The notes: a model not told the origin generated them from the sequence alone. Positions 2,877-63,906 are shown, counted from the first letter of the stretch. The stretch is DNA of 64,000 nt from Actinomycetota bacterium (GCA_036795215.1 DAIRFC010000004.1:4822-68821); one strand, 5' to 3'. Translations and numbers: made by a program.

Positions 2877-2879
2877 GAC

Positions 2880-39879: not shown

Positions 39880-39912
39880 GATCCGTTATCCGGCCGGCCC
39901 GGCACGGACCTC

Positions 39913-39941
39913 TTGACTTGCCCATCCGCATCATGTATATA
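39913..39941 (+). promoter_or_regulatory. AT-rich sigma-70-like promoter driving a leaderless arsR-hdr operon
   Basis: TTGACT at 39913-39918, 17-nt spacer, TATATA at 39936-39941. The arsR ATG at 39949 is about 7 nt after the -10 element, implying a leaderless transcript. Only strongly AT-rich patch for kilobases. Confidence 0.5.
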
Positions 39942-39948
39942 AGTAATC

Positions 39949-47814: not shown

Positions 47815-48326
47815 GGGTTGTCGGCTCGCGCTTTCGCGGCGGCTTTCGCGGCGTGGTCGGCCAACCTCTGCATGGCCGAGGCTCTGGCCGCGAGAGATGC
47901 GGCCGCCATTTCCAGCGCCTCGATACCCGCCTGCGTGATCACGTAGACCCGTCGGCTGGGACCCGCCTCGGGGGTCTGCCATGTGGAGCTGACCAATCCC
48001 TGCTCTTCGAGTTCGCGGAGCAGACGATACATGCTCCCCGGGTCGATGCACACCAGGTCTGAGGCAAGCCCGCCTATCTGCTCGACCAGGTCATACCCAT
48101 GGGTCGTCGTCTCTGCCAGCGAGGCCAGTATGGAGGTCTCGAGCACGGCGCGCCGGTAACGGCCTCCACCGGCGCCACCACCCGGTCCGCCGCCCGCAGC
48201 GCGTCTCGTGCCCCCGAAGAAGCCCGGACCTGTGTCTGGACCTGTGCCGGCTCCCCCGGCCTGTCCCGCTGCCGCTCCGGCGCCTCTTCGGCCTCTGCCC
48301 TGGGGATTCCCGCTGCTCTTACCCAT
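47811..48326 (-). CDS. PadR-family transcriptional regulator with Gly/Arg-rich N-terminal extension
   Basis: PadR wHTH (..ILASLAETTTHGYDLVEQIG..MYRLLRELEEQGLV..RVYVITQAG). About 60-aa G/R-rich low-complexity N-terminus. Its stop shares the CTAG tetranucleotide with the dsrE stop. Confidence 0.7.
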   Translation of the reverse strand: MGKSSGNPQGRGRRGAGAAAGQAGGAGTGPDTGPGFFGGTRRAAGGGPGGGAGGGRYRRAVLETSILASLAETTTHGYDLVEQIGGLASDLVCIDPGSMYRLLRELEEQGLVSSTWQTPEAGPSRRVYVITQAGIEALEMAAASLAARASAMQRLADHAAKAAAKARADNP

Positions 48327-48714
48327 GGTCGCTCTCGACCTCGTCTCTCGTCACTCGCCCCAGCATGAAGTCATCGATCGCCTTGTGGAGGGCGGTCGCG
48401 GCGTGATTGGAGCAGTGCTGTTTTGGCTCAGGCAGACCACCGAGAGCGACCATGATGTCAATGTCGTCGAGCATAGAGGCCTCCTCCATCGTCATGCCGG
48501 TCGCCAGCTCGCTCATCATGCTGCAGGTGGCGATGGCAGCCGGGCAGCCGAACACCTTGTACTTCACCTCCGCCAGCAGATCGCCTTCAACTCGGATCCA
48601 GACCTTGAAGTAGTCTCCGCATTCGGGGTCGCCCACTGTTCCCACGCCGTCGGGGTTCTCGATCTCCCCGACGTTGCGTGGGTTCAGGAAGTGCTCGACG
48701 CTCAGTGGTCGCAC
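48319..48714 (-). CDS. IscU/NifU-N-like Fe-S cluster scaffold protein
   Basis: ..HFLNPRNVGEIENPDGVGTVGDPECGDYFKV..GCPAAIATCSMMSEL.. is the ISCU signature with its three Cys. Start uncertain (GTG 48714 proposed). Confidence 0.65.
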   Translation of the reverse strand: MRPLSVEHFLNPRNVGEIENPDGVGTVGDPECGDYFKVWIRVEGDLLAEVKYKVFGCPAAIATCSMMSELATGMTMEEASMLDDIDIMVALGGLPEPKQHCSNHAATALHKAIDDFMLGRVTRDEVESDHG

Positions 48715-49985
48715 ACGTTGTCCCCGGTCACAAGCGTCCCACTCAGGTACTGCCGCACCACCGCCTCGGGCTCTGCCGAGGGAGCTCCGATGATGACGCT
48801 GACTCCTTGTTCTGTGAACAACTGCTGAGCCCGTGAACCCATGCCACCGGCGATGATGAAACCGGCTCCCTTGTCGGCCAACCATGCGGGCAGCAGACCG
48901 GGCTCGTGTTCCGGGGCCGGGATGGTGGTCTTGTTCAGGATCTGCTTCGACTGTGGGTCGACGTCCACAAGCGTGAATTCTTGGCAGTGGCCGAAGTGGG
49001 CGCACAGGACGCCGTCACTCGTGGGCACGGCGAACCGCTGCACGGCGTCGATGTCCGCGGCCGGAGACGCTCCTGCGGCCGCCGCTGCGGAGCAAGACGC
49101 CGTCGCTGCGGGGCAGGATGCCGCTCCGGGGCAGGATGCCGCCACCGCGTCGTCGGCGGGCTCGTCCTCGAGTGCGAGGATGAACGGCAAGGCCTTCGCG
49201 AACTCCTGAGCCGCCGGGCTCTTGGAGTAGTGGTATATGTACGGACGGCCGGAGTCACCCGCTTCAACGATCGCGGGGTCGAGGGGGACGCTGGCCAACA
49301 GCGGCACTCCGGCCTTGGCTGCCATATCGGCGCCGCCGCCCTTGCTGAAGACGTTCGTCACCTCACCGCACTTCGGGCAGACGAACCCGGCCATGTTCTC
49401 GATCACGCCCAGCACCCTGAGGTCCAGAAGGGAACAGAAACTGATGGACCGTCGGACATTGTTGAGGGCCGTCTGCTGCGGGGTGGTCACGATGATCGCG
49501 CCGGCCATCTTGCCGATGGCCTGGCAGACCGCCAGTGGCTCGTCGCCCGTGCCGGGCGGCGAGTCGATGATCAGGTAGTCGAGTTCGCCCCATTCGACCT
49601 CGCCCAGGAACTGCTCGATAGCGACCGCCTTCATAGGGCCGCGCCACACGACGGCGGCGTCCTCTTCGCCGAGCAGAAAGGCGATGGACATCACCTTGAG
49701 GTTCTCGCCCACTTCCACGGGATGAAGCGTCTCTCCTTCGATCGTGACGGGCGAGCCGTTCAGGCCGAGCAGTTGGGGGACCGTGGGCCCGTGTAGATCG
49801 ACATCGAGAAGACCCACGCGCTTGCCCTCGAGGGCAAGCGAGGTGGCCAGATTGACCGAGACGGTGCTCTTGCCAACACCGCCCTTGCCCGATAGGACTA
49901 TGATCTTATGCTTGATCTGGCTCATCTTCTCCCGCACCGCGGGCGCCCGATCGTTGCCTTGCTGTGATTGGTGCGCGCAATCCAT
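48702..49985 (-). CDS. Mrp/NBP35 (ApbC) P-loop ATPase fused to C-terminal NifX/NifB-like cofactor-binding domain
   Basis: Deviant Walker A SGKGGVGKST and CPxC-like CPKC motif of Mrp/NBP35. Ala/Ser/Cys-rich linker. C-terminal domain ..VLCAHFGHCQEFTLVDVD..GFIIAGGMGSRAQQLF.. of the dinitrogenase FeMo-cofactor-binding (NifX/NafY) family. Start chosen at ATG 49985 (AGAGG RBS); alternatives are GTG 50030 and ATG 49925. Confidence 0.75.
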   Translation of the reverse strand: MDCAHQSQQGNDRAPAVREKMSQIKHKIIVLSGKGGVGKSTVSVNLATSLALEGKRVGLLDVDLHGPTVPQLLGLNGSPVTIEGETLHPVEVGENLKVMSIAFLLGEEDAAVVWRGPMKAVAIEQFLGEVEWGELDYLIIDSPPGTGDEPLAVCQAIGKMAGAIIVTTPQQTALNNVRRSISFCSLLDLRVLGVIENMAGFVCPKCGEVTNVFSKGGGADMAAKAGVPLLASVPLDPAIVEAGDSGRPYIYHYSKSPAAQEFAKALPFILALEDEPADDAVAASCPGAASCPAATASCSAAAAAGASPAADIDAVQRFAVPTSDGVLCAHFGHCQEFTLVDVDPQSKQILNKTTIPAPEHEPGLLPAWLADKGAGFIIAGGMGSRAQQLFTEQGVSVIIGAPSAEPEAVVRQYLSGTLVTGDNVCDH

Positions 49986-50237
49986 GCTTATGCCTCTGCT
50001 TTCTTTAACATCTCGTCGAGTCTTTGCCACATGTCTCGTATCTGATCGGCGGCCTGACTGCCGCCGTACTCCACAGGAGCTCGTGTGCGGCGCACAGGTA
50101 CAGAGCCACCCGGGCCGTCAACGAGCGCGAGGTCGAGCCCCGATCACGGGGGCCAGAGCCGAAGCCTCGTTCCTCATCGGAGTGACGAGTTTACCCGAGT
50201 TCTCGCTGCCGATGTACACGCCTCGCACCTACGACCC

Positions 50238-50480
50238 TCATAGTCCCTCGAGCTCTCTGATTCGCTGCTCGATAGTCTCCAGCACCGACTTCAACCGTTC
50301 GGATTCGCTCTTGAGAAGGGCGACCTCCTCGTCGGGTCCAAGGATGTTGTCGGGTCCCGGCGGTTCATGTGTGGCCGGTGCCCCTTCGGCGACGCAGATA
50401 CGGTCACAGCAGCCGTAGCCGCCCCCCGTCTTGCACCCACACTTGGCACCGAGTGGGCCGGTCACATCTCCTTTGGGCAT
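50238..50480 (-). CDS. DUF5320 family protein
   Basis: MPKGDVTGPLG..CGC..GGGYGCC N-terminus and a C-terminal coiled coil (LKSESERLKSVLETIEQRIRELEGL), as in DUF5320. ATG 50480 with GGAG RBS. Confidence 0.7.
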   Translation of the reverse strand: MPKGDVTGPLGAKCGCKTGGGYGCCDRICVAEGAPATHEPPGPDNILGPDEEVALLKSESERLKSVLETIEQRIRELEGL

Positions 50481-50540
50481 CTTGAGTCTCCTTGATACAC
50501 GCCGGTGCGTCGACGGCCGGCACCGCATATGAGCCACGGT

Positions 50541-50900
50541 CTACCAGTGGCCGTCCACGTCGGCGGCCGGGGCCTGCTCGAGACTTCCCGCCTCGAATCG
50601 GTCGATCGCTTCCGCAACGGTTCCCGCCGGGGCCAGATAGACTTCGACGCCGGCGGCGTTGAGCGCCCTGAAGGCCTTCGGGCCGCAGTGCCCGGTAAGA
50701 AGCACGGTGGCTTCGTTGTCGATGACTCTCTGGGCTGCCTGGATCCCCGCACCCTGTTCGGCGTTCATGCCGGCCAGGTTGTCAACAGGGAGTACGGTCC
50801 GCTCCGGGAGGTCCACCACGAGCAGGTAGTGCGCCCGCCCGAAGCGCTGATCCACAGCGCTCGAAAGATCAGGGCCTGCCGATGTCACGGCTATTCTCAC
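50541..50900 (-). CDS. NifX/NifB-like dinitrogenase FeMo-cofactor-binding family protein (stand-alone)
   Basis: MRIAV.S.G..L.S.VD.RFGRA.Y.L.VD.. and ..VLLTGHCGPKAFRAL..AGVEVY.. pattern. GTG start with AGAGGAG RBS. Confidence 0.7.
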   Translation of the reverse strand: MRIAVTSAGPDLSSAVDQRFGRAHYLLVVDLPERTVLPVDNLAGMNAEQGAGIQAAQRVIDNEATVLLTGHCGPKAFRALNAAGVEVYLAPAGTVAEAIDRFEAGSLEQAPAADVDGHW

Positions 50901-50917
50901 GTCGTTCTCCTCTCTTC

Positions 50918-51481
50918 TCAGGGTGCACGGTAACGGCCGCGCGTCCCACTTCGATCACTCCGTCCACGGCCGCCGCCCGCGCCACCGCCGCCTCCGCACC
51001 CCGGACCCTGGCCGCCTCGCGGGCCTTGTCCCTTCCCTTGGCCTCTTCCTCCTCCACGACCTTGTCCAGCTCCGCGACCTGGACCTCTACCAAGGCCGGA
51101 TGCCGCAGAGCCGTCGCGGCTATCGGTCGGCGGCGTATCAGGTGCGAAGCTTCGTTTGACGTCAAGGGCGAATCCCACCAGACTCAGGAGCCCTGAAAAG
51201 AATCTCTGGGCGGGTGTGATAGAGCTCTGGGCGGGCGCGACAAGGGGAGGTGCAACGTCGGGGATGATGGCCGGCAGTCCGGCCTTCTCCGTGCGAACGG
51301 GAAGCTCGTCAGGCTCCATGATGATAGCGCTCGTGAGACACGCATCCACGCATCGTCCACACGAGGTACAGAGGTTTTCGTCGATGAAGGCGGTGTCACC
51401 GCGCATGGTGATCGCCTCGCGGTTGCAGCTGTCTATGCAGACCCCGCAGCCTGTACAGAGGTTCTCGTCGACGTACACCAT
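50918..51481 (-). CDS. 2x[4Fe-4S] ferredoxin with about 60-aa Gly/Arg-rich C-terminal tail
   Basis: CTGCGVCIDSCNREA and CTSCGRCVDACLTSA motifs. Tail GRGPGRGAGQGRGGGRGQGKGQGPRGGQGPGCGGGGGAGGGRGRS. ATG 51481 with GAGG RBS. Confidence 0.7.
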   Translation of the reverse strand: MVYVDENLCTGCGVCIDSCNREAITMRGDTAFIDENLCTSCGRCVDACLTSAIIMEPDELPVRTEKAGLPAIIPDVAPPLVAPAQSSITPAQRFFSGLLSLVGFALDVKRSFAPDTPPTDSRDGSAASGLGRGPGRGAGQGRGGGRGQGKGQGPRGGQGPGCGGGGGAGGGRGRSDRSGTRGRYRAP

Positions 51482-51540
51482 GTCAGCCTCACATCTATAT
51501 GCAGTTAGCATCTATATGAAAACATCATCAGTTCCCAACG

Positions 51541-52512
51541 TCAAGGGGCCGGCTTATCCGTGGAGCCGGTAGGCGCATAGAAAGTGCGGCCTGCCAGCGT
51601 CTCCGGGCTGATCTGCTTCTCCGCGAGGAGGATGTCCAGGCGCTTCAAGACATCCAGCACGTGCAGGCCAAGCCCGGCCGCGATATCGTCGGCCGTGCAC
51701 GGACGCCTGGCCAGTAGGGCAAGGATGCCGGCATCGTCGGTCGCTCCGGCGGCGTGGTGTTCCGACCTGCTCTTGGTGAAGTCGCAGATGACCTCGACAT
51801 CACGCGAGAACAGGCCTGCGAGGGCGTGCATGCGCTCTTCCGGCAATGCGTGCACGAAGCCCTCGACCGGAGGGCGGCTGGCCGTGTTCAGCTGGACCCG
51901 GGTCGGAGCGATCTGCTCAACCAGCTGCGCGATTTTCTCGACCTGCGAGGGCGTGTCGGTCAAACCTGCCAACAGCATGACTTCCAGCCACACTTGCCCG
52001 TCGAAGCGCCCGGTGAAGGCGGCGAGCCCGTCGACCATGAGATCGAAGGAGATCGACGGGTCGGGACGGTTGACCTGCTCGAACATCTCCGCGTCACCAG
52101 CGTCGAGCGACGGGAGTACCAAGTCTGCCTCCGAGAGCTCTTCCTGTACTTCTTCCATCCACAACAGCGAACCGTTGGTGATCATCGCCACAGGAATGTC
52201 GGTCATCCCTTTGATGAGCCGGATGAGCCGGCCGATCCCGGAATGCAGCGTGGGCTCGCCCGACCCGGCAAGGCTTATGTAGTCGGGAGTGTCTCCCGCC
52301 GCCAGATGGCGCGCGATCCCGGCCTGCACCGCGTCGACAGGGACGTATTCGCGTCGCTCGGTCGTCTTGTTGGTCGTACGCCCAAGCTGGCAGTAGACGC
52401 AATCGTAGGTGCACGTCTTATAGGGTACGAGGTCTACGCCCAGTGACCGGCCCAGCCGCCTTGACGGGACCGGTCCGTAGATGTAGTCGTCGACGTGTTG
52501 TGTCGTGCTCAC
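51541..52512 (-). CDS. radical SAM protein (subfamily not assignable)
   Basis: CxxxCxxC motif CTYDCVYC preceded by YGPVPSRRLGRSLGVDL. GTG 52512 (GGGAGAGG RBS) overlaps the TAG stop of the upstream CoADR gene by 1 nt. Confidence 0.7.
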   Translation of the reverse strand: MSTTQHVDDYIYGPVPSRRLGRSLGVDLVPYKTCTYDCVYCQLGRTTNKTTERREYVPVDAVQAGIARHLAAGDTPDYISLAGSGEPTLHSGIGRLIRLIKGMTDIPVAMITNGSLLWMEEVQEELSEADLVLPSLDAGDAEMFEQVNRPDPSISFDLMVDGLAAFTGRFDGQVWLEVMLLAGLTDTPSQVEKIAQLVEQIAPTRVQLNTASRPPVEGFVHALPEERMHALAGLFSRDVEVICDFTKSRSEHHAAGATDDAGILALLARRPCTADDIAAGLGLHVLDVLKRLDILLAEKQISPETLAGRTFYAPTGSTDKPAP

Positions 52513-54209
52513 TACCTCTCCCGGGAGTACGGCCAGGCCATGATGCCACCCTCCATGACCCGCACGTTCTTCCAACCATTCGCCTCGAGAACCAGCGCGG
52601 CTTCGTAACCTCGCAGGGAGATCTTGCAGAAGCAGATGATCTCGGCGTCTTTGTCCTCGGGTAGTTCGTGCAGGCGTTTACGCAATGCACCAAGCGGTAT
52701 CAGCGTCTCGCCGATACCCAACCGCATGGCCTCGAACTCGTCGGGATTGCGTACGTCAAGAAGGAAAACGGGCGCCTTCGAATCGATCTTGCTCTTGACC
52801 TCGACCGATGAGATGCCCTTGAGCCGGCCTTTCAACTTGTTTTGCATCAGGTGGGCCGTAGCGATGAAGTGGTCTATGGCCAGCGAGAACGGTGGCGCGT
52901 ACGGTAGGTCGGAGTTGACGAGGTCTTCGACCGTGAGCCCGCCCTGGATAGCCATGGCCCACTGCGCGATCTGTTTAGATACCGCGCCTGGGCCGACACA
53001 CTGGGCGCCCAATACACGTCCGGTGGAGCGGTCGGCGATCATCTTGGTGACCAACAGCTTGCCTTCCATGAAGCCCGGTTTGTCAGGGCTTGCGTTGATC
53101 ACGGTCATGATGTCATCAAAGCCGTTGGCGCGGGCTGTGCGCTCGGAAAGCCCCGTGGTGCCCGCGGCGTAGTCGAATATCTTGCAGATGCCGGTGCCGA
53201 TACTCCCTGGGAAGGTCACGGTGTTGCCGAGCACGGCGTTCTCGCCGGCCACGCGTCCCTCGAGATTCGCCAAGTCTCCGTAGGGGGCGTGCACCTGCTT
53301 GCCGGTGATCAGGTTCTTGATCTCCACGCAGTCGCCGGCCGCGTAGATACTGGGGTCAGACGTCTGCATGTACTCGTTGACGACGATGCCCCCGGTAGCG
53401 CCGATGTCCAGGCCCGTTTCGCGCGCCAGCTTGCTGTTCGGCTTCACGCCGATGGCGATCACAGCGAGCTCGCAAGGGAGCTCGGTCCCGTTGGCCAGCT
53501 TGACTCCCACCAGCTTGCCGTTCTCACCCAGGAAAGCCGCCAGGCCGTTGTCGGTGAAGACGTTGATCGACTGGCCCAAGTGCATCTCGATGAGCTTGGC
53601 CATCTCCCAGTCGAGAAAGGTGAGCAGCTGAGGCAGGAGCTCGACCACGGACATCTCGATACCGGCCAGATGCAGCGCCTCGCATGTCTCGATGCCGATA
53701 AGACCGCCGCCGATGACCACCGCCTTCGTGATGGTCTTGTCGTCGCGTATCTTGCGCAGATAATCGGCATCGCGGATGGTCTGAAGAGTCGTGATGCCCT
53801 CAAGGTCGCTTCCAGGCACCGGTGGGATGTTGGGGAGCGCGCCGGTCGCCAAGACCAGCGAGTCATACGGAACCTCGTCGGTCGCGCCGGTTCTGAGATC
53901 GCGGCAGAGCACGGTCTTCTTCGTCCGGTCGATGGAGAGCGCCTCGGTCTCGGTACGTGCCACGACGTTCTTGGCGTTCATATAGTAGATGGGGTCGCGG
54001 ACAACTCCGGTCGCGCTACAGAGCAGCGCATTGCGGTCGTCGAAGAAACCGCCCACATAGTAGGGGTAACCGCACGAAGCCATCGAGAGCTCAGGGATCT
54101 TCTGTATGAGAGTGATCTCCGCGTTCTCGTCGATGCGCCTGGCTTTCGCGGCGGCCTTGGGGCCGGCCGCAGAACCGCCGATGACTACTATCTTCTTTCG
54201 GTCGCTCAT
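52512..54209 (-). CDS. CoA-disulfide reductase / NAD(P)H-dependent persulfide reductase-like flavoprotein with C-terminal rhodanese domain
   Basis: FAD motif IVVIGGSAAGPKAA. CoADR-type active Cys (SMASCGYPYYVGG). Second NAD(P)H Rossmann. C-terminal rhodanese with catalytic loop CFCKISLRG. ATG 54209 with AAGGA RBS. Confidence 0.8.
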   Translation of the reverse strand: MSDRKKIVVIGGSAAGPKAAAKARRIDENAEITLIQKIPELSMASCGYPYYVGGFFDDRNALLCSATGVVRDPIYYMNAKNVVARTETEALSIDRTKKTVLCRDLRTGATDEVPYDSLVLATGALPNIPPVPGSDLEGITTLQTIRDADYLRKIRDDKTITKAVVIGGGLIGIETCEALHLAGIEMSVVELLPQLLTFLDWEMAKLIEMHLGQSINVFTDNGLAAFLGENGKLVGVKLANGTELPCELAVIAIGVKPNSKLARETGLDIGATGGIVVNEYMQTSDPSIYAAGDCVEIKNLITGKQVHAPYGDLANLEGRVAGENAVLGNTVTFPGSIGTGICKIFDYAAGTTGLSERTARANGFDDIMTVINASPDKPGFMEGKLLVTKMIADRSTGRVLGAQCVGPGAVSKQIAQWAMAIQGGLTVEDLVNSDLPYAPPFSLAIDHFIATAHLMQNKLKGRLKGISSVEVKSKIDSKAPVFLLDVRNPDEFEAMRLGIGETLIPLGALRKRLHELPEDKDAEIICFCKISLRGYEAALVLEANGWKNVRVMEGGIMAWPYSRER

Positions 54210-54323
54210 GTGAGGTCCTTTCGTCATGGAAATTCATTACAGCCGGTACCCCGTTTTGCGCAAATGTACTACTATCTAGATGCAGTTACCAGTTAGATTA
54301 TCTCCGCACCTATGGAGGCTCCT

Positions 54324-55067
54324 ATGATCATCGACGATCTGCGAGACTACCTCGCGTCCGCCTTTGCCGAGCAGCGTCTGGCCGATGTCCGCATAGGCCT
54401 GGGCTACACGGCCGTGATGCTTGAAGACGGCAACGTGGGTGTCGCCTATACGGCAAGAGAGAACGCCTCTCCCGGGTGCTCGGTCTTCATGGGGCGGCGG
54501 CCCCTGGTCGGCAGGAGCACCACGGAGATCCTGGAATACCTGGGGTCTGACGACGGAGTGGAGCGTACTGTGGGCTTGGCTGTCGGCAACGCGCTCGCGA
54601 ACAGGCCGGGAGCGGGGCAGCAGGCGGGGGATATCCTCGAGACCCTCTCCGTTGGTTTTCTCGACCGGGTGGGCATGGTCGGCTTCTTCGGTCCTCTCGT
54701 GTCTCCTATCGAGAAACGCGCCCGCGAACTGGTCATCTTCGAGCGCACCATGACCCGCTCAGAACGCGTACTACCGGCGGAGAAGGCTCTCGAAGAGCTG
54801 CCCCGGTGTGACGTTGCGGTGATCACCTCCACGGCGTTCATCTTCGGCGGCATGGATGGTCTGCTCGAGGCGGCCTCGTCGTGTCGGGATGTGGCGCTGG
54901 TCGGAGCTTCGACCCCGCTCGTGCCCGATTTCTTTGCGCCGCTGGGAGTCAAGCTCCTCTCCGGCATCACCGTCACCGATCCGTCCAGCATCCTGCAGAT
55001 CGTGAGCGAGGGCGGCGGGATGGGGTTCTTTGGGCGGCACATAAAGAAGGTGAACATGCGGCTCTGA
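54324..55067 (+). CDS. DUF4213/DUF364 (putative heavy-metal chelation, Rossmann-like) domain protein
   Basis: Typical DUF4213 N-terminus (..VRIGLGYTAVMLEDGNVGVAYT..) and DUF364 C-terminus (..DVAVITSTAFIFGGMDGLLE..). Start moved to ATG 54324 (GGAGG 5 nt upstream). Confidence 0.65.
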   Translation: MIIDDLRDYLASAFAEQRLADVRIGLGYTAVMLEDGNVGVAYTARENASPGCSVFMGRRPLVGRSTTEILEYLGSDDGVERTVGLAVGNALANRPGAGQQAGDILETLSVGFLDRVGMVGFFGPLVSPIEKRARELVIFERTMTRSERVLPAEKALEELPRCDVAVITSTAFIFGGMDGLLEAASSCRDVALVGASTPLVPDFFAPLGVKLLSGITVTDPSSILQIVSEGGGMGFFGRHIKKVNMRL

Positions 55068-55201
55068 GACGTCCCAGTTGGGATACAGAATGCCCTGAAG
55101 AACTTGACTGGCGGCGGCGCCTCGTGATACATCTATATATCTAGATGAAGCGGGCCTGTCTAGGTTATCGATTCCAGGGCTACGTATCTACAAGGAGCAC
55201 G

Positions 55202-56446
55202 ATGGTCTCATCGTCGGGGGGTCTGGCCGAGGAGCGTCGCAAGCGGTTCGATGACGCCATCCGTCTTGACGTACCCGATAGAGTGCCGCTTGAGATCAAC
55301 TTCGGCTACTTTCCAGCCAAGTACTGTGGCATCAGTTACTCGGCGTCCTATTACGACTACGACGCATGGCTGTCGGCGTGCAAGAAGACCGTGCTCGACT
55401 ATGGCGCTGATATCAGCAGCGTGCAGCAGTTCTTCCCCGGGGTCATCCTGGAACAGATCGATCCTCACGTCATAAGATGGCCGGGCCGGGGCGGTTCGCC
55501 CATTCAGTCTCACCAGATAATCGACGGCGAGTACATGCTCGAAACCGAGTATCCCCACCTCATCGCCGACCCTACCGACTTCGTGTTCCGGCGTTACATG
55601 CCACGCATGTCTGGGGCCATGAAGGCGTTCGCCTCGGCTCCACCTCTGCCCGCCGCGGAGATGGGCCATCGTACCGTTCTTGGCTTGGCCGAAATACTGA
55701 CCGCTCCTGAGTTGGCGCCCACCATCGAGAAGCTTCAGAGCATCGGACGGGAGTATCGCGAATGGAGTCCCAAGCTGGCTGCCTTCAACCAGGAGATCGA
55801 AGATCTGGGCTTTCCTCCCCTGGCCGACCGTCTGACGTTGGCTCCCTACGATGTGATAGCGGACAACCTCCGGGGTATGCGGGGCACCATGATGGATCTG
55901 TACAGACGCCCCGACGAACTGGCCGACGCGTGCAGGACTGTTCTGAAGGTCGTGCTCGATCGCATCGGCGGGCCGGTCGAGGGCGGAGTGAACAGGGTGG
56001 CCATCCCGTTGCACTTCGGCTCGGAGGGCTTCTGTTCTCGCGAGCAGTTTGAGACTGTCTACTGGCCTACCCTTAGAGATCTGATCCTGGGGCTCATCGA
56101 TAAGGGCCTCACACCTCTTGTCATGACAGAAGGCGATTACACCTCCCGGCTCGAGTATTTGCTGGAGATACCGAAAGGGAAGGCCTTCGTGCACTTCGAC
56201 AGCACCGACATGTTCAGGGCCAAGGATGTCCTTGGCGGGCACCTGTGCATCAGTGGGAACGTACCGGTGTCGATCCTTCTCGGAGGGACGCCCGACGAGG
56301 TGAGAGAGGTGGCCAAGAAGCTCATCGATCACTGCGGTCGCGACGGTGGGTTCGTCATGTCTACGCGCACCCCGGTGGACGACGCGCGGCCCGACAACCT
56401 GAAGGCGTTGATAGACTTTACTGTAGAGTATGGCGCATATGCCTGA
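55202..56446 (+). CDS. uroporphyrinogen-decarboxylase (URO-D)-like / MtaA-CmuA-type methyltransferase family protein
   Basis: TIM-barrel URO-D family pattern over about 415 aa. ATG 55202 with AAGGAG RBS. Confidence 0.6.
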   Translation: MVSSSGGLAEERRKRFDDAIRLDVPDRVPLEINFGYFPAKYCGISYSASYYDYDAWLSACKKTVLDYGADISSVQQFFPGVILEQIDPHVIRWPGRGGSPIQSHQIIDGEYMLETEYPHLIADPTDFVFRRYMPRMSGAMKAFASAPPLPAAEMGHRTVLGLAEILTAPELAPTIEKLQSIGREYREWSPKLAAFNQEIEDLGFPPLADRLTLAPYDVIADNLRGMRGTMMDLYRRPDELADACRTVLKVVLDRIGGPVEGGVNRVAIPLHFGSEGFCSREQFETVYWPTLRDLILGLIDKGLTPLVMTEGDYTSRLEYLLEIPKGKAFVHFDSTDMFRAKDVLGGHLCISGNVPVSILLGGTPDEVREVAKKLIDHCGRDGGFVMSTRTPVDDARPDNLKALIDFTVEYGAYA

Positions 56447-56499
56447 CGGACTGCTACAGTGCGGCTGAACTCTGGCCCCGCGGCTTTGGGAGACGCGAG

Positions 56500-57459
56500 A
56501 TGACTTCCTACATAATCCGGCGAGTCCTCTGGGGAGTGTTGGTCCTATTCCTCGTGTCGGTGATCGTGTTCTTCTCGGTCCGTCTGCTGCCGGGCGATCC
56601 GGTGCTCATGTTCGTGGCGCAGCAGTCAAGCGGTTCGGGGATGACCGAGGAGCATCTCGAGAAACTGCGGATAGAGCATGGCTTGGACAAGCCGGTCGTG
56701 GTGCAGTTCGGAAACTGGATCAAGGGGATCGTCACCGGAGACCTGGGCAAATCGATTCGCTACAGGACGGATGTTGCTTCACTGCTCACGGACTTTTTAC
56801 CTGTGACGCTCATCTTGGGCTTGATTTCTGTTGTCCTCAGTACCGTCTTGGGGGTCTTTCTGGGGTTGATGGCCGCCATACGACGAAGTACGTGGGTCGA
56901 CACGGTGGTGACCATCATCTCGTACATAGGGCTTGTCATCCCCGTCTTCATGTTGGGCTTCATCCTGATCTACGTGTTCGGGCTCAAGTTGGGTTGGCTG
57001 CCTATCGCCGGCTACAAGCTCCCGTGGGTGGACTTCGGGGCCAGCGTGAAATACAGCGTCATGCCCGTGGCGTGTCTGGCCGTGACGCCTTTGGCCGTCA
57101 CGGCTCGCCAGATGAGGTCGAGCGTGCTCGAGGTCAACAACATGGACTACGTGCGCACCGCGTGGTCGAAGGGTCTTAGGGAGCGGCTCGTGGTCACCAG
57201 ACATATCCTCAAGAACAGCCTCGTACCGGTTATCACGCTTCTAGGTATCAGCATCGGCATCATCTTCGGTGGGTCGGTCATTGTCGAGAGCATGTTTGCC
57301 ATCCCCGGCATGGGCCGGCTCCTCGTGCAGAGCGTGTTCAACCTCGACTACGTAGTCATCCAGGGCGGCACTCTCATCATCGCCGCTATGATCATTCTGG
57401 TGAACCTGATAGTCGATATCTCGTACGGTTGGTTCGACCCGAGGATCCGCTATGAGTGA
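56500..57459 (+). CDS. ABC transporter permease (DppB/OppB-type)
   Basis: N-terminus MTSYIIRRVLWGVLVLFL.., six TM helices and an EAA-like loop (..YVRTAWSKGL..). Confidence 0.85.
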   Translation: MTSYIIRRVLWGVLVLFLVSVIVFFSVRLLPGDPVLMFVAQQSSGSGMTEEHLEKLRIEHGLDKPVVVQFGNWIKGIVTGDLGKSIRYRTDVASLLTDFLPVTLILGLISVVLSTVLGVFLGLMAAIRRSTWVDTVVTIISYIGLVIPVFMLGFILIYVFGLKLGWLPIAGYKLPWVDFGASVKYSVMPVACLAVTPLAVTARQMRSSVLEVNNMDYVRTAWSKGLRERLVVTRHILKNSLVPVITLLGISIGIIFGGSVIVESMFAIPGMGRLLVQSVFNLDYVVIQGGTLIIAAMIILVNLIVDISYGWFDPRIRYE

Positions 57460-58348
57460 TATCTCCACCGTCCAAGAACCCGAGGTCACCGTTCCCCCAC
57501 GCATAAGCGAGTGGAAGCGTTTCCGCCGCATCTTCTTCCAGCGCAAGTTGGTGACGTTCGGGCTCGTCGTTCTGGTGATCCTGGTGTTGGTGGCGATCTT
57601 CGCCCCCCTCATCGCTCCTAGCGACCCATACAAGAACGAGATGTCGCAGTCTTTGCAGGATCCGAGTTGGAACCACCTCCTCGGTACCGACAACCTTGGC
57701 CGGGACACGCTCAGTCGCCTGATCTATGGGGCGAGGACCGCGCTTTACGTAGGTTTCGGAACGGTGCTCGTATCGGCCGTGATCGGCATGATCCTCGGAC
57801 TGCTCGCCGGCTACCTTGGCGGTGTCGTCAACGGAATCATCATGCGTGTCATGGACGCCTTGATGGGTTTCCCGATGCTCGTTCTCGCCTTGTTGCTGGC
57901 CGCGGTGCTCGGGGGAGGTCTTCAGAATGTCGTCATTGCTCTGGCCATCGCGACTTTGCCCGGCTACGTCCGGTTGATGTGCGCCGAGACCATGAGTGTG
58001 AAAGAGAACGAATACATCTTGGCTCAACGCGCTATCGGCGCGAAGGGTTTTCGCACGATGATGAAACACGTGTTGCCCAACGCCTTCCAGCCGAGCTTGG
58101 TCTTGATCACCACCATGTTGGGGAATGTAATCCTGGCGGAAGCCGGCCTCAGTTTCATCGGCATCGGTATCCAGCCGCCCGGGGTGGCATGGGGCAGTAT
58201 GGCCGCCGACGGCTATAGGTCTCTGGCCTCTCATCCGTTGCTCTCGTTCTCACCGTCGATAGCCATCATGATCGTGGTGTTCGCATTCAACATGGTCGGC
58301 GACGGTCTCCGCGATGCACTCGACCCGAAACTCAGGGGTACGCTGTGA
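57452..58348 (+). CDS. ABC transporter permease (DppC/OppC-type)
   Basis: Six TM helices. Conserved ..LGTDNLGRD.. N-terminal motif of OppC/DppC. Overlaps neighbouring genes. Confidence 0.85.
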   Translation: MSDISTVQEPEVTVPPRISEWKRFRRIFFQRKLVTFGLVVLVILVLVAIFAPLIAPSDPYKNEMSQSLQDPSWNHLLGTDNLGRDTLSRLIYGARTALYVGFGTVLVSAVIGMILGLLAGYLGGVVNGIIMRVMDALMGFPMLVLALLLAAVLGGGLQNVVIALAIATLPGYVRLMCAETMSVKENEYILAQRAIGAKGFRTMMKHVLPNAFQPSLVLITTMLGNVILAEAGLSFIGIGIQPPGVAWGSMAADGYRSLASHPLLSFSPSIAIMIVVFAFNMVGDGLRDALDPKLRGTL

Positions 58349-59385
58349 GCACCCAGACAGGAATCCAGACACCCGCGTGCGACATAAGGCCGGCCGGCGA
58401 ATTGCTGCGCGTGAACGACCTTCAGACCGAGTTCAAGGTGGAAGGGGGCATAGTCCACGCGGTGAATGGGGTGTCTTACACGGTCAATGAGAGGGAGATC
58501 GTGGGCATCGTGGGCGAGAGCGGTTGCGGCAAGTCGGTCTCCCAGTTGTCGGTCATCCAGCTCATCCGGAGACCCGGCCGGATCGTCGGAGGTGAGGTCT
58601 GGTTCGAAGGCGACAATCTGCTGAAGTACGATTCCAAGGGCGCTGAGATGCGCGCCATCCGTGGTGCGAAGATCGGCATGATCTTTCAAGAGCCCATGAC
58701 CTCGTTGAACCCGGTTCTGACGATCGGCCGCCAGTTGACCGAGTCGCTCGAGTTGCACTTGGATATGAAGAGGAAGGAATCAAGGAAGAGAGCCGCGGAG
58801 CTACTGAACCTGGTAGGTATTCCAAGTGCCGAGACGCGGTTGGACGACTATCCCCACCAGTTCAGCGGTGGCATGAGGCAGCGGGTCATGATCGCCATAG
58901 GAGTAGCGTGCCAGCCCAGGATGCTCATCGCCGATGAACCTACCACGGCGCTGGACTGTACCACCCAGGCGCAGTTACTCGAGCTGATGCTCTCGATGAT
59001 CGAGGGCTGCCGTGGGTCGTTGGTGTTGGTTACGCACAACCTTGGAGTGGTGGCCCGGTACGCCAATCGCATCTACATCATGTACGCAGGCAAGATCGTC
59101 GAACAGGGACTCTGCCGGGATATCTTCTACCGGCCGCAGCACCCTTATACCGTTGGTCTCTTGAACAGCGTCCCGCGTCTGGACGAGGAGCGGGGCAGGC
59201 GCTTGGTGCCCATCGAGGGCACGCCGCCCAATCTCATCGGTATGCCCGACAGGTGCGCGTTCTATCCTCGCTGCCCCGAACGGGGTGAGCAGTGCCGTCT
59301 GCAGCCCTGGCCCGAACTTGAGCCAGTGGAGGGCGAAGGGCACATGGCGCGTTGCTACATGCGCGCGGGGAGGGCCGAAGAATGA
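58345..59385 (+). CDS. ABC transporter ATP-binding protein (OppD/DppD-type)
   Basis: Walker A GESGCGKS, signature LSGGMRQRV, Walker [14 protein letters not shown]-terminal oligopeptide-transporter extension. Confidence 0.85.
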
Positions 59386-60407
59386 CGACCGCCACAGAAA
59401 CGCCGCAGGTTGTCACGACCGCGCGTTCGAAGGAATTGGTCCTCGATGTCGACGGACTCAAGATGTACTTTCCCATAACCAGGGGGCTGCTGAAGAGAAA
59501 GGTCGGTGAGGTCAAGGCCGTCGACGGCGTGTCTTTCAAGATGCGGCGCGGAGAGACCCTTGGTCTGGTCGGAGAGAGCGGTTGCGGCAAGACAACCGTG
59601 GGGAGGTGCATCAGCCGGCTCTACAAACCCACGGCGGGCACCATCCTGTTCAACGGCGAAGACATCACCACTATGCCCGAGAAGGAGTTCCGGCCGCGCC
59701 GCCGTGACATCTCCGTGATATTCCAAGACCCGTACGGCTCCCTCGATCCGCGGCAGTCGGCCGGGAGCATCGTGGGCGAACCCCTCAAGATCCAGAGTAT
59801 GGTCGAAACCAAGGAAGACTATCTTGAGAGGGTCGAAGCACTTTTCGGCAAGGTGGGTCTTGATCCCGACCTCATGGGACGGTACCCACACGAGTTCAGC
59901 GGGGGGCAGCGGCAGCGCATCGGCATCGCGCGGGCCCTGGCCAACGACCCAAGCCTAGTGATCTGCGACGAGCCTGTCTCGGCGCTGGACGTTTCCATCC
60001 AGGCTCAGATCATCAACCTCCTCATGGATCTGCGCGAGGGGTCTTCGGGGCTCAGCTACATCTTCATCGCGCACGACCTGTCTGTGGTAAAACACTTCAG
60101 CGATCGCATCGCCGTGATGTATCTGGGGCGCATCGTGGAGATAACGACTCCGGAAGAGCTCTACGATAATCCTCTGCACCCGTACACGCGGGCCCTCTTG
60201 TCGGCGGTCTGCGTACCCGACCCGGACATCGAGGCTGCTCGGGAGAGGATCGTGCTTCAGGGCGAGGTCCCAAGCCCGGTCAACCCGCCGTCGGGCTGCA
60301 CTTTCCATGCGAGGTGCCCCATCGCTACACCCGAATGTCGAACGACTATCCCTACACTCAAAGAGCTGGGGGATGACCATGAGGTCGCCTGCCTCCATAT
60401 CCAGTGA
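59382..60407 (+). CDS. ABC transporter ATP-binding protein (OppF/DppF-type)
   Basis: Walker A GESGCGKT, signature FSGGQRQRI, Walker [16 protein letters not shown] 59382 overlaps the upstream stop. Confidence 0.85.
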
Positions 60408-60434
60408 CCGTGACGGTCTGAGCGCGGTGGAGAT

Positions 60435-61106
60435 GTGGTCTTGAACGTGATCGAAGCCATCGAGTCTCGCAGGTCCGTCCGGGCCTTCAAGCCGGAGCCT
60501 GTTCCTCGAGAGGTGATCTCGAAGATCGTTGGAGCTGCCAACTGGTCGCCTTCGTGGGCCGACACGCAGCCCTGGGAGGTCTTCGTAGCGGGCGGTGATG
60601 TCTTGGGCCGCATCCGCGAACGTTTTCTCGCCCGATACAAGGACGGCGTGCCGCCTGCTAACGATCTGCCACGGCCCGGAGGCTGGCCCGAAGGTCCGAA
60701 GCGGCGGATGCTCGATTTCGTCAACGCCCGGTGTTCGGCATTGGGGGTCGTCCCAGGCGACGAGGCTGAGCGCGAGACGAGCATGAAGCGCAATTACGAG
60801 TTCTTCGACGCGCCCGTGGTCGTCTATCTGTGCCTGCACAGGGACCTCTCTCCTTGGTCCTATTTCGACATGGGCCTCTACGCTCAGAGTCTCATGCTGG
60901 CGGCCATGGAGTACTCGGTGGGGTCGGTGGTCGCCGTCAATCTGACCGCGTACCCCGACATCATCCGCGAAGAACTGGGCGTGCCCCAGGAGTACAGCGT
61001 CCTCATCGGTGTGGCCCTCGGCTACGAAGATCCCGACGATATGGCCAACACAGTCCGGAGCATCCGCCGGCCTGTTGAGGACGCCGTCACCATCAGCGGC
61101 CTGTAG
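60435..61106 (+). CDS. nitroreductase-family protein
   Basis: ..IESRRSVRAFKPEPVP.. N-terminus plus the ..NWSPSWADTQPWEVFV.. core. GTG start. Confidence 0.75.
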   Translation: MVLNVIEAIESRRSVRAFKPEPVPREVISKIVGAANWSPSWADTQPWEVFVAGGDVLGRIRERFLARYKDGVPPANDLPRPGGWPEGPKRRMLDFVNARCSALGVVPGDEAERETSMKRNYEFFDAPVVVYLCLHRDLSPWSYFDMGLYAQSLMLAAMEYSVGSVVAVNLTAYPDIIREELGVPQEYSVLIGVALGYEDPDDMANTVRSIRRPVEDAVTISGL

Positions 61107-61119
61107 AGGAAGGAGCGAG

Positions 61120-61542
61120 ATGGCCGACGCGAAGACCTACAAGGACAATATCGTCACCCGCTATCTGGCCGATACGACCAAGTTCGAGGGGACGACCATA
61201 CGCCCGGTCGCCTTCATCGATTCCAGGTTCGTCCCAGGGTCGTTCTACGCCGAGTGCGTTTGGTTCAGCGAGCCATCCGAGGGATCTCCCCCGGAGCACT
61301 GCCACGACGAAGCCGATGAGATCCTCATGTTCTTCGGGTCAGACTCGGAGCATCCGCACGATCTGGGCGGCGAGGTGGAGTTGTGGGTGGAGGGCGAGAA
61401 GCTGACCATCACGGAGAGTTCCATGGTCTTCATACCCAAAGGCGTGAAGCACTGCCCCATGTACTTTCGGAGAGTAGACAGACCCATCATCCACCTATCG
61501 ACCATGCCGTCGCAGGGCTATAGCCGGGACGGCATGGAATAG
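61120..61542 (+). CDS. cupin-domain protein
   Basis: Cupin motifs (..EHCHDEADEILMFFG.. and ..MVFIPKGVKHCP..). AGGAAGGAG RBS before ATG 61120. Confidence 0.6.
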   Translation: MADAKTYKDNIVTRYLADTTKFEGTTIRPVAFIDSRFVPGSFYAECVWFSEPSEGSPPEHCHDEADEILMFFGSDSEHPHDLGGEVELWVEGEKLTITESSMVFIPKGVKHCPMYFRRVDRPIIHLSTMPSQGYSRDGME

Positions 61543-61597
61543 AAGACCGAGCAACGAGGGCGACCAAGGGCCGTCGCAACAGGAGGGAGTGTCGATC

Positions 61598-62056
61598 TTG
61601 GACAAGCTGGAGAATTCACCCTACAGGAAATACTTCAAAGTCGGCGATGAGATAAAGATCCCGCAGCACCCGCACGAACACGAGGTGCCTTGGCCCGCGA
61701 TCTATCTCCTCGGCACTGATGTGCCGGCTACGCAGGGATTTCGTATCGCGACATTCGCCATAACCGAACCGTTCGAGATGGTCTCGCACACCCATTCACA
61801 CGACTTCGACCAGTACCTGTCGTTCTATGGCGGCGCGCCCGACATGTTGGACCTGGGTGGCGAGGTGGAGTTCACTATCGGCGAGGTCGGCAAGGAGCTC
61901 CAGACCATCGTGTTCACCAAACCGTTCATGTGCCATGTACCCCCGGGAGTGTTGCATTGCCCGCTTCGGTACACCAAGATCAACGACCCCGCGAAGCCGA
62001 TGATCCACCAGGATCTGGTTTTCACGGGTGAATACATCCGCAAGCCGGCCAGTTGA
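61598..62056 (+). CDS. cupin-domain protein (paralog of preceding gene)
   Basis: Same architecture as the upstream cupin (..SHTHSHDFDQYLSFYGG..GGEVEF..). TTG 61598 is preferred for RBS spacing; GTG 61589 also possible. Confidence 0.55.
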   Translation: MDKLENSPYRKYFKVGDEIKIPQHPHEHEVPWPAIYLLGTDVPATQGFRIATFAITEPFEMVSHTHSHDFDQYLSFYGGAPDMLDLGGEVEFTIGEVGKELQTIVFTKPFMCHVPPGVLHCPLRYTKINDPAKPMIHQDLVFTGEYIRKPAS

Positions 62057-62217
62057 AAAGGCCGAATCGACTGTCACAGCGGTAGGTGAGGGAGACGTTG
62101 GAAGGGGGTGCGTATCGCAGGGTTCACAAAGGAGGGACAGGATTCTTCCAGATGCACGACCATCGAAAGAGCGTGTGTGACTCAAGGCAAACAATGTCCC
62201 GCAGAGGGGGTAGTGAA

Positions 62218-63906
62218 GTGAGAGGAAAAACCACGAGAAGGACCATATGGAGCCTCGGCATCCTGGTGTTGGTCGCGATGCTGATGGTCTTCATGGTCGG
62301 TTGCGGCGAAGAAGAGCCGCCGGCTACTACTGCAGCGCCTGCCACCACGGCGACAACGGCTGGGGGCACCGACACCACGGCGCCGCCGGCCACGGAAACC
62401 ACTGCCGCTCCGAGCACCGACACCACCGCCGCGCCGGCCGACCAGCCGGTCTCCGGTGGCGTTCTGAGGCTCATCCACAACGCCGGCCCTCAGAGCGTCG
62501 GCTGGTGGTCCAGCATGGGTCCGACCGATGAAGGCGCCATCTTCCCCGGTGTGGAGAGGACTATGAAATTCGCTCCCGGCCGGAAGCTGGTTCCCTGCTT
62601 GGCCAAGACCGTGACTGAGGACCCGGATGCTCTTACCATCACGTTCGAGCTCGAAGAGGGTGTCCTCTTCCATGACGGCACCGAGCTTACCGCCGAAGTG
62701 GCGAAGTGGAACTACGATATCGGCGCGGCCAACGGCAAGCTACAGTTCGCCGACTCCATCAAAGAGTTCGAGATCACCGGTCCGTACAGCTATGTGTTGC
62801 ATCTGAACTACTGGCATAACCAGCTGCTGCAGGCCGTCGGGTGGGTGCCCATGCTCTCACAGGCCGCCTACGAGGCCAACGGTGGCGAGAACGGCGGCAT
62901 GGAATGGTGCTCCGAGAACCTCGTGGGTACCGGTCCGTTCCTGCTCAAGGAGTTCAACCGCGACCAGTCGCTGGTGTGGGAGAAGAACCCCAACTACTGG
63001 GGTGGCGAGGTCTATCTCGACGGTATCGAGGTCCAGATCATCCCCGACAACACCACTGCTTCAGCCATGATGCAGGCCGGCCAGGCCGACATCTGGCAGA
63101 GTGCCGATGCTCAGGGCCAGAAGGAGATGCAGGATATGGGCTACACCCTCCAAGAGGGTTGGGCCGGATTCCAGTATCATCTTATGCCGAACACCATGGA
63201 CGAGACCGGCCCGATGGCTGATCAGAGGGTCCGTGAGGCCGTTGAGTACGCTCTCGACAAGGAAGCCATCCACGCCGCCATCGGTTATGGCCGCGGCTTC
63301 CCGCTCTACGCTGTCTCTCCTCCTGGTGAGTGGGGCGGCGAGGCTATCGCTGTCAAGCGCACCTACGATCTCGAAAAGGCCAAGGCCCTCCTTGCTGACG
63401 CCGGCTATGCCGATGGTTGCCCCATCACCATCCTTGCTGTTGCCGAGACGGGCGGTCGTAGCACCGGCGCCGAGGCCGTCAAGGGTTATCTGGATGAGGC
63501 AGGCTTCATCACCACTCTCGACATCGCCGATGCCGGTCGCTTCTACGGTTCGGTGTTCGGCACCGGATGGGACGATCTAGCCCTCATGTTCTCGGGTAAC
63601 GACGTCGTGTACCTGATGTCTTGCGCGGCTTGGTGGGGTCCGACTCCGAAGACCAACCTCGCAAGCTTCAAGCGTCCCGACGATTTCGTTGCTCTCTTCG
63701 AGCCGGCCCTGAACGCCCGTACCGAAGAAGAGCAGATCGCCAAGACCGAGGACATCGTCCGCTACATGAACGAGCATGCCCTCATGATCCCGCTGTGGCA
63801 ATCGCCGGCGACCCTGGTCATCCAAGACTATGTCCACTGCGATTACCCGATGGAAGCCGGGTTCGTGGGCTGGTCCTGGGAGAAGACCTGGATGGGCGAG
63901 CACTAG
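62218..63906 (+). CDS. ABC transporter substrate-binding lipoprotein, family 5 (peptide/nickel-binding type)
   Basis: Lipobox LMVFMVGC, Thr/Ala/Pro-rich linker and an SBP_bac_5 body. GTG 62218 (GAGGGGG RBS) preferred; ATG 62194 is the alternative. Confidence 0.8.
   Translation: MRGKTTRRTIWSLGILVLVAMLMVFMVGCGEEEPPATTAAPATTATTAGGTDTTAPPATETTAAPSTDTTAAPADQPVSGGVLRLIHNAGPQSVGWWSSMGPTDEGAIFPGVERTMKFAPGRKLVPCLAKTVTEDPDALTITFELEEGVLFHDGTELTAEVAKWNYDIGAANGKLQFADSIKEFEITGPYSYVLHLNYWHNQLLQAVGWVPMLSQAAYEANGGENGGMEWCSENLVGTGPFLLKEFNRDQSLVWEKNPNYWGGEVYLDGIEVQIIPDNTTASAMMQAGQADIWQSADAQGQKEMQDMGYTLQEGWAGFQYHLMPNTMDETGPMADQRVREAVEYALDKEAIHAAIGYGRGFPLYAVSPPGEWGGEAIAVKRTYDLEKAKALLADAGYADGCPITILAVAETGGRSTGAEAVKGYLDEAGFITTLDIADAGRFYGSVFGTGWDDLALMFSGNDVVYLMSCAAWWGPTPKTNLASFKRPDDFVALFEPALNARTEEEQIAKTEDIVRYMNEHALMIPLWQSPATLVIQDYVHCDYPMEAGFVGWSWEKTWMGEH

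Follow-up and report, generated by a model that had tools for sequence, protein, structure and literature searches.

The window analysed here, a 64,000-nt stretch of DNA from an Actinomycetota bacterium (GCA_036795215.1 DAIRFC010000004.1:4822-68821), contains a short AT-rich motif in three promoter gaps of a cluster of iron-sulfur (Fe-S; "orange protein", ORP) and sulfur genes. In two of these gaps (sites 1 and 2) the motif is part of a 27-bp dyad, while in the third (site 3) one unit of the dyad recurs in another arrangement. The sites exist, are enriched in the window and keep their position and sequence in other species, and the element behaves as a DNA signal and not as an RNA signal. We propose that the motif copies are probably operators of one sequence-specific repressor, for which the PadR-family protein encoded by the last gene of the operon under site 1 is the leading candidate.

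The recurrent motif is one arm of a 27-bp dyad

An earlier note on this DNA had described atctatatgcagttag at 51493-51508 with a half-site atctatatg at 51510-51518, atctagatgcagttac at 54274-54289 (14/16 identical to atctatatgcagttag), and atctatat at 55131-55138 followed by atctagatg at 55139-55147, the last pair lying next to a TTGACT (55104-55109)-17 nt-ATACAT (55127-55132) element. All of these strings are present at the positions given, and the recurrence is real: ATCTAKATG has 4 exact matches in the window against 0.27 expected, a number that 0/100 shuffles gave, and the 8-mer ATCTAKAT occurs in 5 exact copies in the three gaps and nowhere else in the 64 kb. Every copy is non-coding, lying between the radical SAM and ferredoxin genes, in the divergent gap between the CoADR-rhodanese (CoADR-RHD) and DUF364 genes, or between the DUF364 and URO-D-like genes.

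The motif named in that note thus stands, but the one-sided 15-mer drawn there does not give its true extent. ATCTAKATG is one arm, read on the opposite strand, of a 27-bp dyad with the consensus yATATAGATGCAAnTTGCATcTAGaTG, in which positions T3, T5, A6, T9, G10, C18, A19, T20, T22 and A23 are invariant (TAnATG-N7-CATnTA) and in which palindromic 10-bp units are nested at a distance of 17 bp. The second half of site 2, which had been missed, is the degenerate AGTTAGATT, placed at the same +17 bp offset as in site 1, and the two sites match across 26-27 bp (20/26 identical).

The dyad is conserved at fixed positions in related species

Scanning a genome collection with the PadR protein as query returned 16 loci from metagenome-assembled genomes (MAGs) of Gaiellales, Thermoleophilia and other Actinomycetota. 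Loci L001-L006 come from the same species as the window and therefore carry no evolutionary information. To avoid the circularity of a PadR query, we also scanned metagenomes with MrpORP, another protein of the same operon, and divided the loci into those in-clade (MrpORP at least 63% identical) and those out-of-clade (at most 57%, ~60 loci); pieces of ~20 kb per genome were examined.

A weight matrix for the 27-bp element, built exclusively from ten sites of other species, gave 37.9 bits (listed as 38/34) for site 1 and 28.2 bits for site 2. The best of 20 random windows reached 17.7 bits and the rest of the 64-kb window never exceeded 12. Coding DNA at window 9709-9727 contains GAGATGAAGAGCTCATCTA, which differs from the core dyad at one position; with the full matrix it stays under 12 bits, and it is probably a chance match. 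Matches of at least 24 bits numbered 29 in 402 kb of in-clade DNA, 1 in 492 kb of out-of-clade DNA and 0 in 46 kb around URO-D orthologs. The isolated out-of-clade matches (L052:37 at 24.4 bits, L095:3769 at 22.9 bits and two more near 18 bits) were judged to be chance matches, in DNA of lower GC content than the matrix background and in one case of low complexity.

Conservation of the motif in orthologous loci, which the earlier note had named as a check, was borne out: in ~15 species of Thermoleophilia/Gaiellales (MAGs) the dyad is kept at the same promoter-relative position between diverged flanks. The 26 distinct operator instances from these species all lie in promoter gaps of one gene set. 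They precede the ferredoxin/NifX genes and DUF364, including a DUF364 gene relocated directly after PadR (L039, L037), as well as extra small NifX-like genes (L010, L019) and a small membrane-protein gene following PadR (L013, L017, L018). This last gene (L013:393-665, L017:7134-7391, L018:6070-6336) is conserved and convergent with PadR, and its promoter carries a site-2-like ...TAGTAyAAGCTATrTGsnnTTACCAGyTA of 15-17 bits; it has no counterpart in the window, in which PadR overlaps DsrE.

The position orthologous to site 1 is filled in L007-L012, L014, L016-L018, L020, L032/33, L039 and L047. For site 2, TGTACTAyTATCTAkATGC..T.CCAGyTAG is conserved in five species inside an otherwise unalignable CoADR/DUF364 gap, and the CoADR-rhodanese/radical SAM arrangement with its operator is also found in L007, L011/L029, L023 and L033. 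Upstream of DUF364, where an operator occurs in at least seven species, the site-2 type is also present in L010, L020, L039 and, weakly, L037. The apparent exceptions are a contig that begins within the ferredoxin gene (L036), three loci without upstream sequence (L035, L037, L055) and a 2x-coverage contig that breaks 190 bp past Mrp (L030). In L030 the sequence from 190 bp after MrpORP (L030:3170-3927, 2x coverage) is unrelated and appears as an assembly artefact, as do the poly-C/poly-A runs with Ns at L017:7560-7650.

The element lies over the putative promoter and behaves as a DNA signal

In 14 ferredoxin/NifX upstream regions anchored on the element, the element itself averages 1.33 bits per column, comparable blocks upstream being CTTGAC (1.22) and TgGTGcTT (1.15), and the flanks, spacer and leader outside these conserved blocks 0.18-0.37. 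The dyad begins exactly 20 nt after the TTGACn box, a distance that is fixed across the 14 orthologous regions and that holds both at site 1 and at the first unit of site 3. Consequently, the element covers the -10 region and the presumed start site, and because it overlies this region its position points to a repressor. The promoter assignment is based on the conserved TTGAC box and the fixed spacing, with the -10 assignments being tentative. The proposal in the earlier note of an operator for a shared repressor is therefore supported by the conserved placement over the -10 and start region in ~15 species and by the lack of RNA covariation described below.

At site 2, TAyTAT directly 5' of the operator is conserved in the window, L007, L011, L010, L020, L023 and L033. 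On the other strand, TACAkT is present in the four inspected loci with CoADR downstream (window, L007, L011, L023); L010 and L020, both without CoADR, have lost it. As site 2 is thus flanked by -10-like elements on both sides, one operator would serve both divergent promoters. The public gene calls give a ferredoxin of 197 aa starting at ATG 51511, within the operator of site 1. The ATG at 51481 is the more likely start, given that GAGG, a ribosome-binding site, precedes it by 5 nt and that the Fer4 domain then begins at residue 1.

We considered whether the palindrome could instead act as an RNA hairpin. Pairing was 74.7% as compared with 76.0% in column shuffles, with 444/500 shuffles at least as high, and the covariation score of the dyad was 0.112 as compared with 0.111 after shuffling; the pair 4/24 was unpaired in 15/17 sequences. 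The hairpin was rejected because there is no covariation and the pairing is no better than in shuffles.

PadR is the best candidate for the cognate repressor

The gene order Fdx-NifX-(DUF5320)-MrpORP-NifU-PadR is conserved in the PadR-query loci, with synteny in L007-L020 and L029-L047, and site 1 heads the PadR-ending operon both in the window and in every orthologous locus for which upstream sequence is available. Every in-clade locus of sufficient length, also when retrieved through MrpORP, has PadR immediately behind MrpORP/NifU, and a strong site is present in every in-clade locus with enough upstream sequence. The ~60 out-of-clade MrpORP loci contained neither a PadR ortholog nor a credible site. 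Among the screened open reading frames of the window, no transcription factors were found besides ArsR and a MazE-type antitoxin. From this linkage and co-distribution, PadR is most likely the best candidate binder, and of the two regulators that the earlier note had suggested it is the one favoured, sharing the operon and the clade distribution of the motif.

The PF03551 winged-helix domain is recognized at residues 66-139 with 63.9 bits (cut-off 27). The best structure matches of the 116-aa core are to subfamily 2 (2esh, 4esb, 3f8b), whose members are LmrR-like, about 110 aa long and carry a single C-terminal helix; the window PadR has 171 aa, longer by a ~55-aa N-terminal extension. In the alignment of orthologs this extension is a conserved Arg/Gly-rich arm, RGRGRRGAG...GGGRYRR, which may make AT-hook-like contacts to the minor groove. 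We know of no description of such an extension together with an invariant Cys in PadR proteins. Gly/Arg-rich sequence of low complexity is likewise found in DUF5320 and in the C-terminal tail of the ferredoxin, two further products of this operon. One Cys and the GPSRRVY wing are invariant among the orthologs and, by motif inspection, the HGY, GSMYRLLR and GPSRRVY segments that are conserved or invariant in 22 orthologs correspond to the Tyr/Tyr/basic DNA-binding triad of the family. In B. subtilis PadR this triad consists of Tyr20 (alpha1/2), Tyr42 (recognition helix) and Lys67 (wing) (PMC5728393). When the recognition helix was compared by eye with the operator variants, no clear correlated pattern was seen.

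PadR-family operators are AT-rich inverted repeats of the form ATGT-N8-10-ACAT (PMC3506622), and the ChIP-seq (chromatin immunoprecipitation sequencing) motif of V. cholerae AphA is ATGCAA-N4-TTGCAT (PMC6855506). The site centre observed here, ATGCAA-N1-TTGCAT, has the same hexamers as that of AphA. The canonical PadR form is absent from the 64-kb window, so the window PadR has no alternative site there, and the only match to an AphA-spaced dyad in the window is a 2-mismatch chance match in coding DNA.

Site 3 reuses one unit of the dyad

The earlier note had described the same short element in three places; sites 1 and 2 are full dyads, but site 3 is not. This site has a different architecture, in which two 10-bp units overlap directly after the URO-D promoter core, is not the canonical 27-bp dyad, and scores ~7 bits with the full-site matrix. 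For a tentative and weak third unit, the aligned counterpart in L023 is the better TATCTAGGTG, shifted by an 11-bp indel.

The module of the URO-D-like gene and an ABC transporter is conserved in many relatives and adjoins the cluster with the motif only in the window and in L023, which encodes a URO-D-like protein 82% identical and shares the CoADR/DUF364 neighbourhood. In L023, CGTGATACATCTATATATCTAGATGAA is 27/27 identical inside an otherwise diverged, indel-rich gap. The promoter core TTGACk-17/18-TGmTACy lies upstream of URO-D in the window, L023, L024, L025 and L027; the short gap of L028 keeps the TGATAC part alone, and L026 has neither the -35 nor the -10 part. The site 3 motif is absent from 5/5 URO-D orthologs in other neighbourhoods, of which three keep the promoter core and a fourth part of it, four carry a different conserved sequence instead, and 3/5 have a TetR gene immediately upstream. 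Because these orthologs retain the promoter core without the motif, site 3 is best read as a lineage-specific recruitment of the 10-bp unit onto an existing promoter. The sequence found in the place of site 3 in four of them, CTGGTAGAG...GAACnnGATTC (L024:3930-4000, L025:3530-3600, L027:3930-3990, L028:3930-3990), is possibly an operator of the TetR that two of these four have immediately upstream.

Alternative explanations

Several points weigh against PadR acting at these sites as a simple repressor. The arms of the dyad are 3 bp closer (ATG-N7-CAT) than the canonical ATG-N10-CAT of PadR and AphA sites, and look-alikes of the half-site occur in unrelated families, as in a predicted Zur site, ATGCAACnnnGTTGCAT (PMC545781), so that the resemblance to PadR/AphA sites is weak evidence. 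The co-distribution of PadR and the motif forms a single clade-wide pattern without independent gains or losses, and may therefore be due to shared ancestry alone. A generic sigma-70 promoter scan called no promoter at any of the three sites, where the -10 hexamers (TTwyAT, TACATC) depart from the canonical form, so the transcription start site (TSS) positions are putative. Site 3 lacks the core dyad and is thus not explained by a simple one-dimer model. In addition, an unlinked regulator could be encoded outside the ~20-kb pieces.

The last of these points leads to an alternative that is clearly less probable, if worth some weight: the operator is genuine and its regulator is encoded elsewhere (an Rrf2/IscR/NsrR-type sensor of Fe-S or nitric oxide, or a ModE-like or Fur-family protein), with PadR having another role or serving as a co-regulator. 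NsrR sites have AGATGCA-type arms. Besides the limited genome coverage and the spacing that misfits canonical PadR sites, the Fe-S/Mo-S (molybdenum-sulfur) flavour of the gene set, which comprises MrpORP, NifU, NifX-like and DUF364 genes (PMC6345978, PMC2954201), would suit such a regulator. However, none is found in the window or consistently beside the sites, where PadR is always present, and the ModE box (ATCGnTATATA-N6-TATATAnCGAT; PMC545781) has 0 matches in the window even at 3 mismatches. PadR, for its part, would be left without any other candidate site in the promoters of its own operon, and a repressor encoded in the operon with its operator at the operon promoter is the commonest arrangement in the PadR family (PMC3506622, PMC5728393). 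It is unlikely that the element is instead a promoter element itself, for instance an extended -10/discriminator of unusual type or a site read by an alternative sigma factor. It does abut or overlap the presumed, non-canonical -10 hexamers, and the TgGTGcTT block upstream is conserved too. Its 27-bp two-fold symmetry, however, reaches ~25 bp past the -10, which sigma-factor signals do not; the dyad occurs in both gene orientations and is flanked by divergent promoters at site 2; a normal promoter of the same organism, that of ArsR (TTGACT-17-TATATA), has no dyad; and the URO-D orthologs retain their promoter core without the motif.

The other candidate of the earlier note, ArsR (39943-40332), heads the Hdr/TusA/DsrE operon and, if it bound the motif, would couple the ORP cluster to sulfur-oxidation genes. 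In other bacteria, genes for persulfide handling, CoADR-RHD among them, are under the control of ArsR/SqrR/BigR-type proteins, and this ArsR is encoded ~11 kb away in the same supercluster, with one match to the 10-bp unit overlapping its promoter at 39932. However, five ArsR orthologs do not conserve this sixth copy, a coincidental overlap with the TATATA -10 box, and the ArsR promoter has no full site. An ArsR ortholog is within reach in 5/14 syntenic loci, and in L010, L012, L014 and L016 none lies within 10 kb of the strong sites, which makes ArsR a very improbable binder. Least probable of all is that the recurrence reflects an RNA hairpin in the 5' leader, controlling translation or stability, or mere chance. 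At site 1 the palindrome lies 8-12 nt from the ribosome-binding site, and 75% of cells can pair, which would suit a hairpin. In addition to the shuffle results, the putative TSS lies inside the element, so that only half of the palindrome would be transcribed, and chance recurrence in an AT-rich background is ruled out by the enrichment over shuffles, by the scores of the independently trained matrix and by the in-clade as compared with out-of-clade match counts.

Genes of the cluster and neighbouring features

The coordinates of the sites, promoter elements and genes are collected in Table 1. The name MrpORP is that used by NCBI. In orthologous operons, ~1.8 kb of extra MinD/ferredoxin-type genes (Orp3/Orp4-like) is found between NifX/DUF5320 and MrpORP (for example L007:5156-7023, L036:1312-3182 and L039:2012-3403); the window species is without them. 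The ArsR-TusA-MvhD-HdrA...DsrE operon has a conserved promoter, cTTGAC-17/18-TATATAAGyAATCATGCAA (window 39890-39960; L007, L008, L009, L011, L015). As only ~7-10 nt separate the -10 from the ArsR start codon, the mRNA is probably leaderless; the conserved AAGyAATCATGCAA might be the operator of ArsR itself. At 2466-3170 and 8045-8491 the window encodes a Fic/Doc toxin with a MazE-type antitoxin and, separately, a PIN-domain gene, which are ordinary toxin-antitoxin modules.

Table 1. Sites, putative promoter elements and genes of the cluster, in window coordinates.
Feature	Coordinates	Strand	Remarks
PadR-family gene, 171 aa	47811..48326	-	Ends the operon under site 1; candidate for the cognate repressor
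Ferredoxin, NifX-like, DUF5320, MrpORP (P-loop and NifX domain), NifU_N operon body	48319..51481	-	Pfam, called genes
Ferredoxin	51481->50918	-	First gene of the operon under site 1
Site 1, full 27-bp operator	51492..51518	-	CATATAGATGCTAACTGCATATAGATG in gene orientation; 11-37 nt upstream of ferredoxin ATG 51481
TTGACG, -35-like box of internal ferredoxin promoter	51539..51544	-	Overlaps radical SAM stop codon; CTTGAC conserved
CoADR-rhodanese (54209->52512) and radical SAM (->51541)	51541..54209	-	Pfam; divergent promoter at site 2
TACATT, probable -10 of CoADR-RHD promoter	54263..54268	-	Just beyond the operator, other strand
TACTAT, probable -10 of DUF364 promoter	54270..54275	+	Adjoins the operator
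Site 2, full operator, second half degenerate	54273..54299	+	TATCTAGATGCAGTTACCAGTTAGATT; 114-bp divergent gap CoADR-RHD/DUF364
DUF364/DUF4213 gene	54324..55067	+	Pfam; downstream of site 2
TTGACT, -35 box of URO-D/ABC-transporter promoter	55104..55109	+	Core conserved in URO-D upstream regions
Site 3, two overlapping 10-bp units	55130..55147	+	CATCTATATA and TATCTAGATG at an 8-bp offset; URO-D promoter core immediately before
Putative third unit of site 3, weak	55157..55166	+	TGTCTAGGTT; tentative
URO-D-like gene (55202-56446) and Opp/Dpp-type ABC transporter	55202..63906	+	Pfam; downstream of site 3
Nitroreductase, cupin-like, unknown and SBP_bac_5 genes, following the ABC transporter	within 55202..63906	+	Pfam; operon extent putative

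Discussion

In the mechanism that we propose, a PadR dimer bound to the 27-bp dyad 20 nt past the TTGAC box would cover the -10 region and start site and block RNA polymerase. At site 1, this would control the ferredoxin-NifX-DUF5320-MrpORP-NifU operon together with PadR, which, as the last gene of this operon, would be autoregulated. At site 2, a single operator would be common to the divergent CoADR-rhodanese/radical SAM and DUF364 promoters. At site 3, the 10-bp unit would have been reused in another arrangement on the promoter of the URO-D-like gene and ABC transporter, as a lineage-specific recruitment. We speculate that a redox, persulfide or metal-sulfur-cluster signal could act via the invariant Cys of PadR.

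In kind this would be an ordinary repressor/operator system of uncultured anaerobic actinobacteria, with a new operator and regulon; we found no paper describing either a PadR of the window type or the 27-bp operator. The unusual spacing, the Arg/Gly-rich arm, the contrast with OrpR of Desulfovibrio and the suggested functional links add a modest interest. The operator ties the ORP proteins, DUF364, DUF5320 and NifX-like carriers of anaerobes to CoADR-rhodanese and hence to persulfide chemistry, and in one lineage ties the same genes to a URO-D-like enzyme and an Opp-type importer, functional links that are testable. Site 3 would also provide a clean case of an operon recruited into a regulon through replacement of the operator on an otherwise conserved promoter. 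A bolder and rather doubtful extension is that the Fe-S/Mo-S machinery of the ORP genes in anaerobic Thermoleophilia/Gaiellales is controlled not by sigma-54 and OrpR but by an undescribed PadR subtype with a subfamily-2 core, in which an AT-hook-like RGRGRRG arm contacts the AT-rich outer operator and a single invariant Cys acts as the sensor of redox, persulfide or cluster status. If so, the regulon of this subtype would link the ORP operon, CoADR-rhodanese and radical SAM, DUF364, NifX-like genes and, in one lineage, the URO-D-like gene and Opp importer.

Comparison with known PadR repressors shows likenesses. As with B. subtilis PadR, L. lactis LmrR and B. cereus bcPadR1, the candidate here is a small winged-helix protein, dimeric in the known cases, that is encoded beside or within the genes it would control. 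Known PadR operators are AT-rich and two-fold symmetric with ATG...CAT arms, overlap the promoter and typically mediate autoregulation, and the candidate operator is alike in these respects. In contrast to the known systems, the signal here extends to 27 bp with nested 10-bp units 17 bp apart, and the targets are Fe-S/ORP and sulfur genes instead of detoxification or efflux genes. Among persulfide sensors, CstR and SqrR/BigR offer a speculative analogy, in that a thiol-bearing repressor could control CoADR-rhodanese and sulfur-trafficking genes and the invariant Cys of PadR might support similar chemistry. These proteins, however, belong to the CsoR-like and ArsR-like families, have two cysteines per protomer and bind unrelated operators. 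The ModE box resembles the dyad in being long and AT-rich with ATC...TATAT arms, and there is a physiological link through the molybdenum/tungsten-sulfur cofactors of ORP and DUF364; the two differ in spacing, and no gene of the ModE type was seen among those of the window.

The closest system by gene content is that of the orp operons of D. vulgaris, which are activated by sigma-54 and OrpR at the GC-rich GGGCGYRTTTTGCGCCC (PMC8359166). Both systems comprise the same kind of genes (MrpORP, NifX-like/ORP and MinD-ferredoxin-type) with a dedicated regulator in the cluster; in both, each of two divergent promoters has a dyad site and the regulon is very small (PMC8359166, PMC6345978). In the window, the OrpR site has 0 matches with up to 3 mismatches, and no AAA+/sigma-54 activator is present among the annotated genes. 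OrpR, an enhancer-binding activator of the sigma-54 type, carries an Fe-S PAS domain, whereas here we find a sigma-70-like TTGAC box, an AT-rich site placed as expected of a repressor site, and a PadR-type candidate. The same ORP gene set would thus be wired in opposite ways, under a sigma-54 activator in Desulfovibrio and under a predicted repressor of sigma-70 promoters in these actinobacteria.

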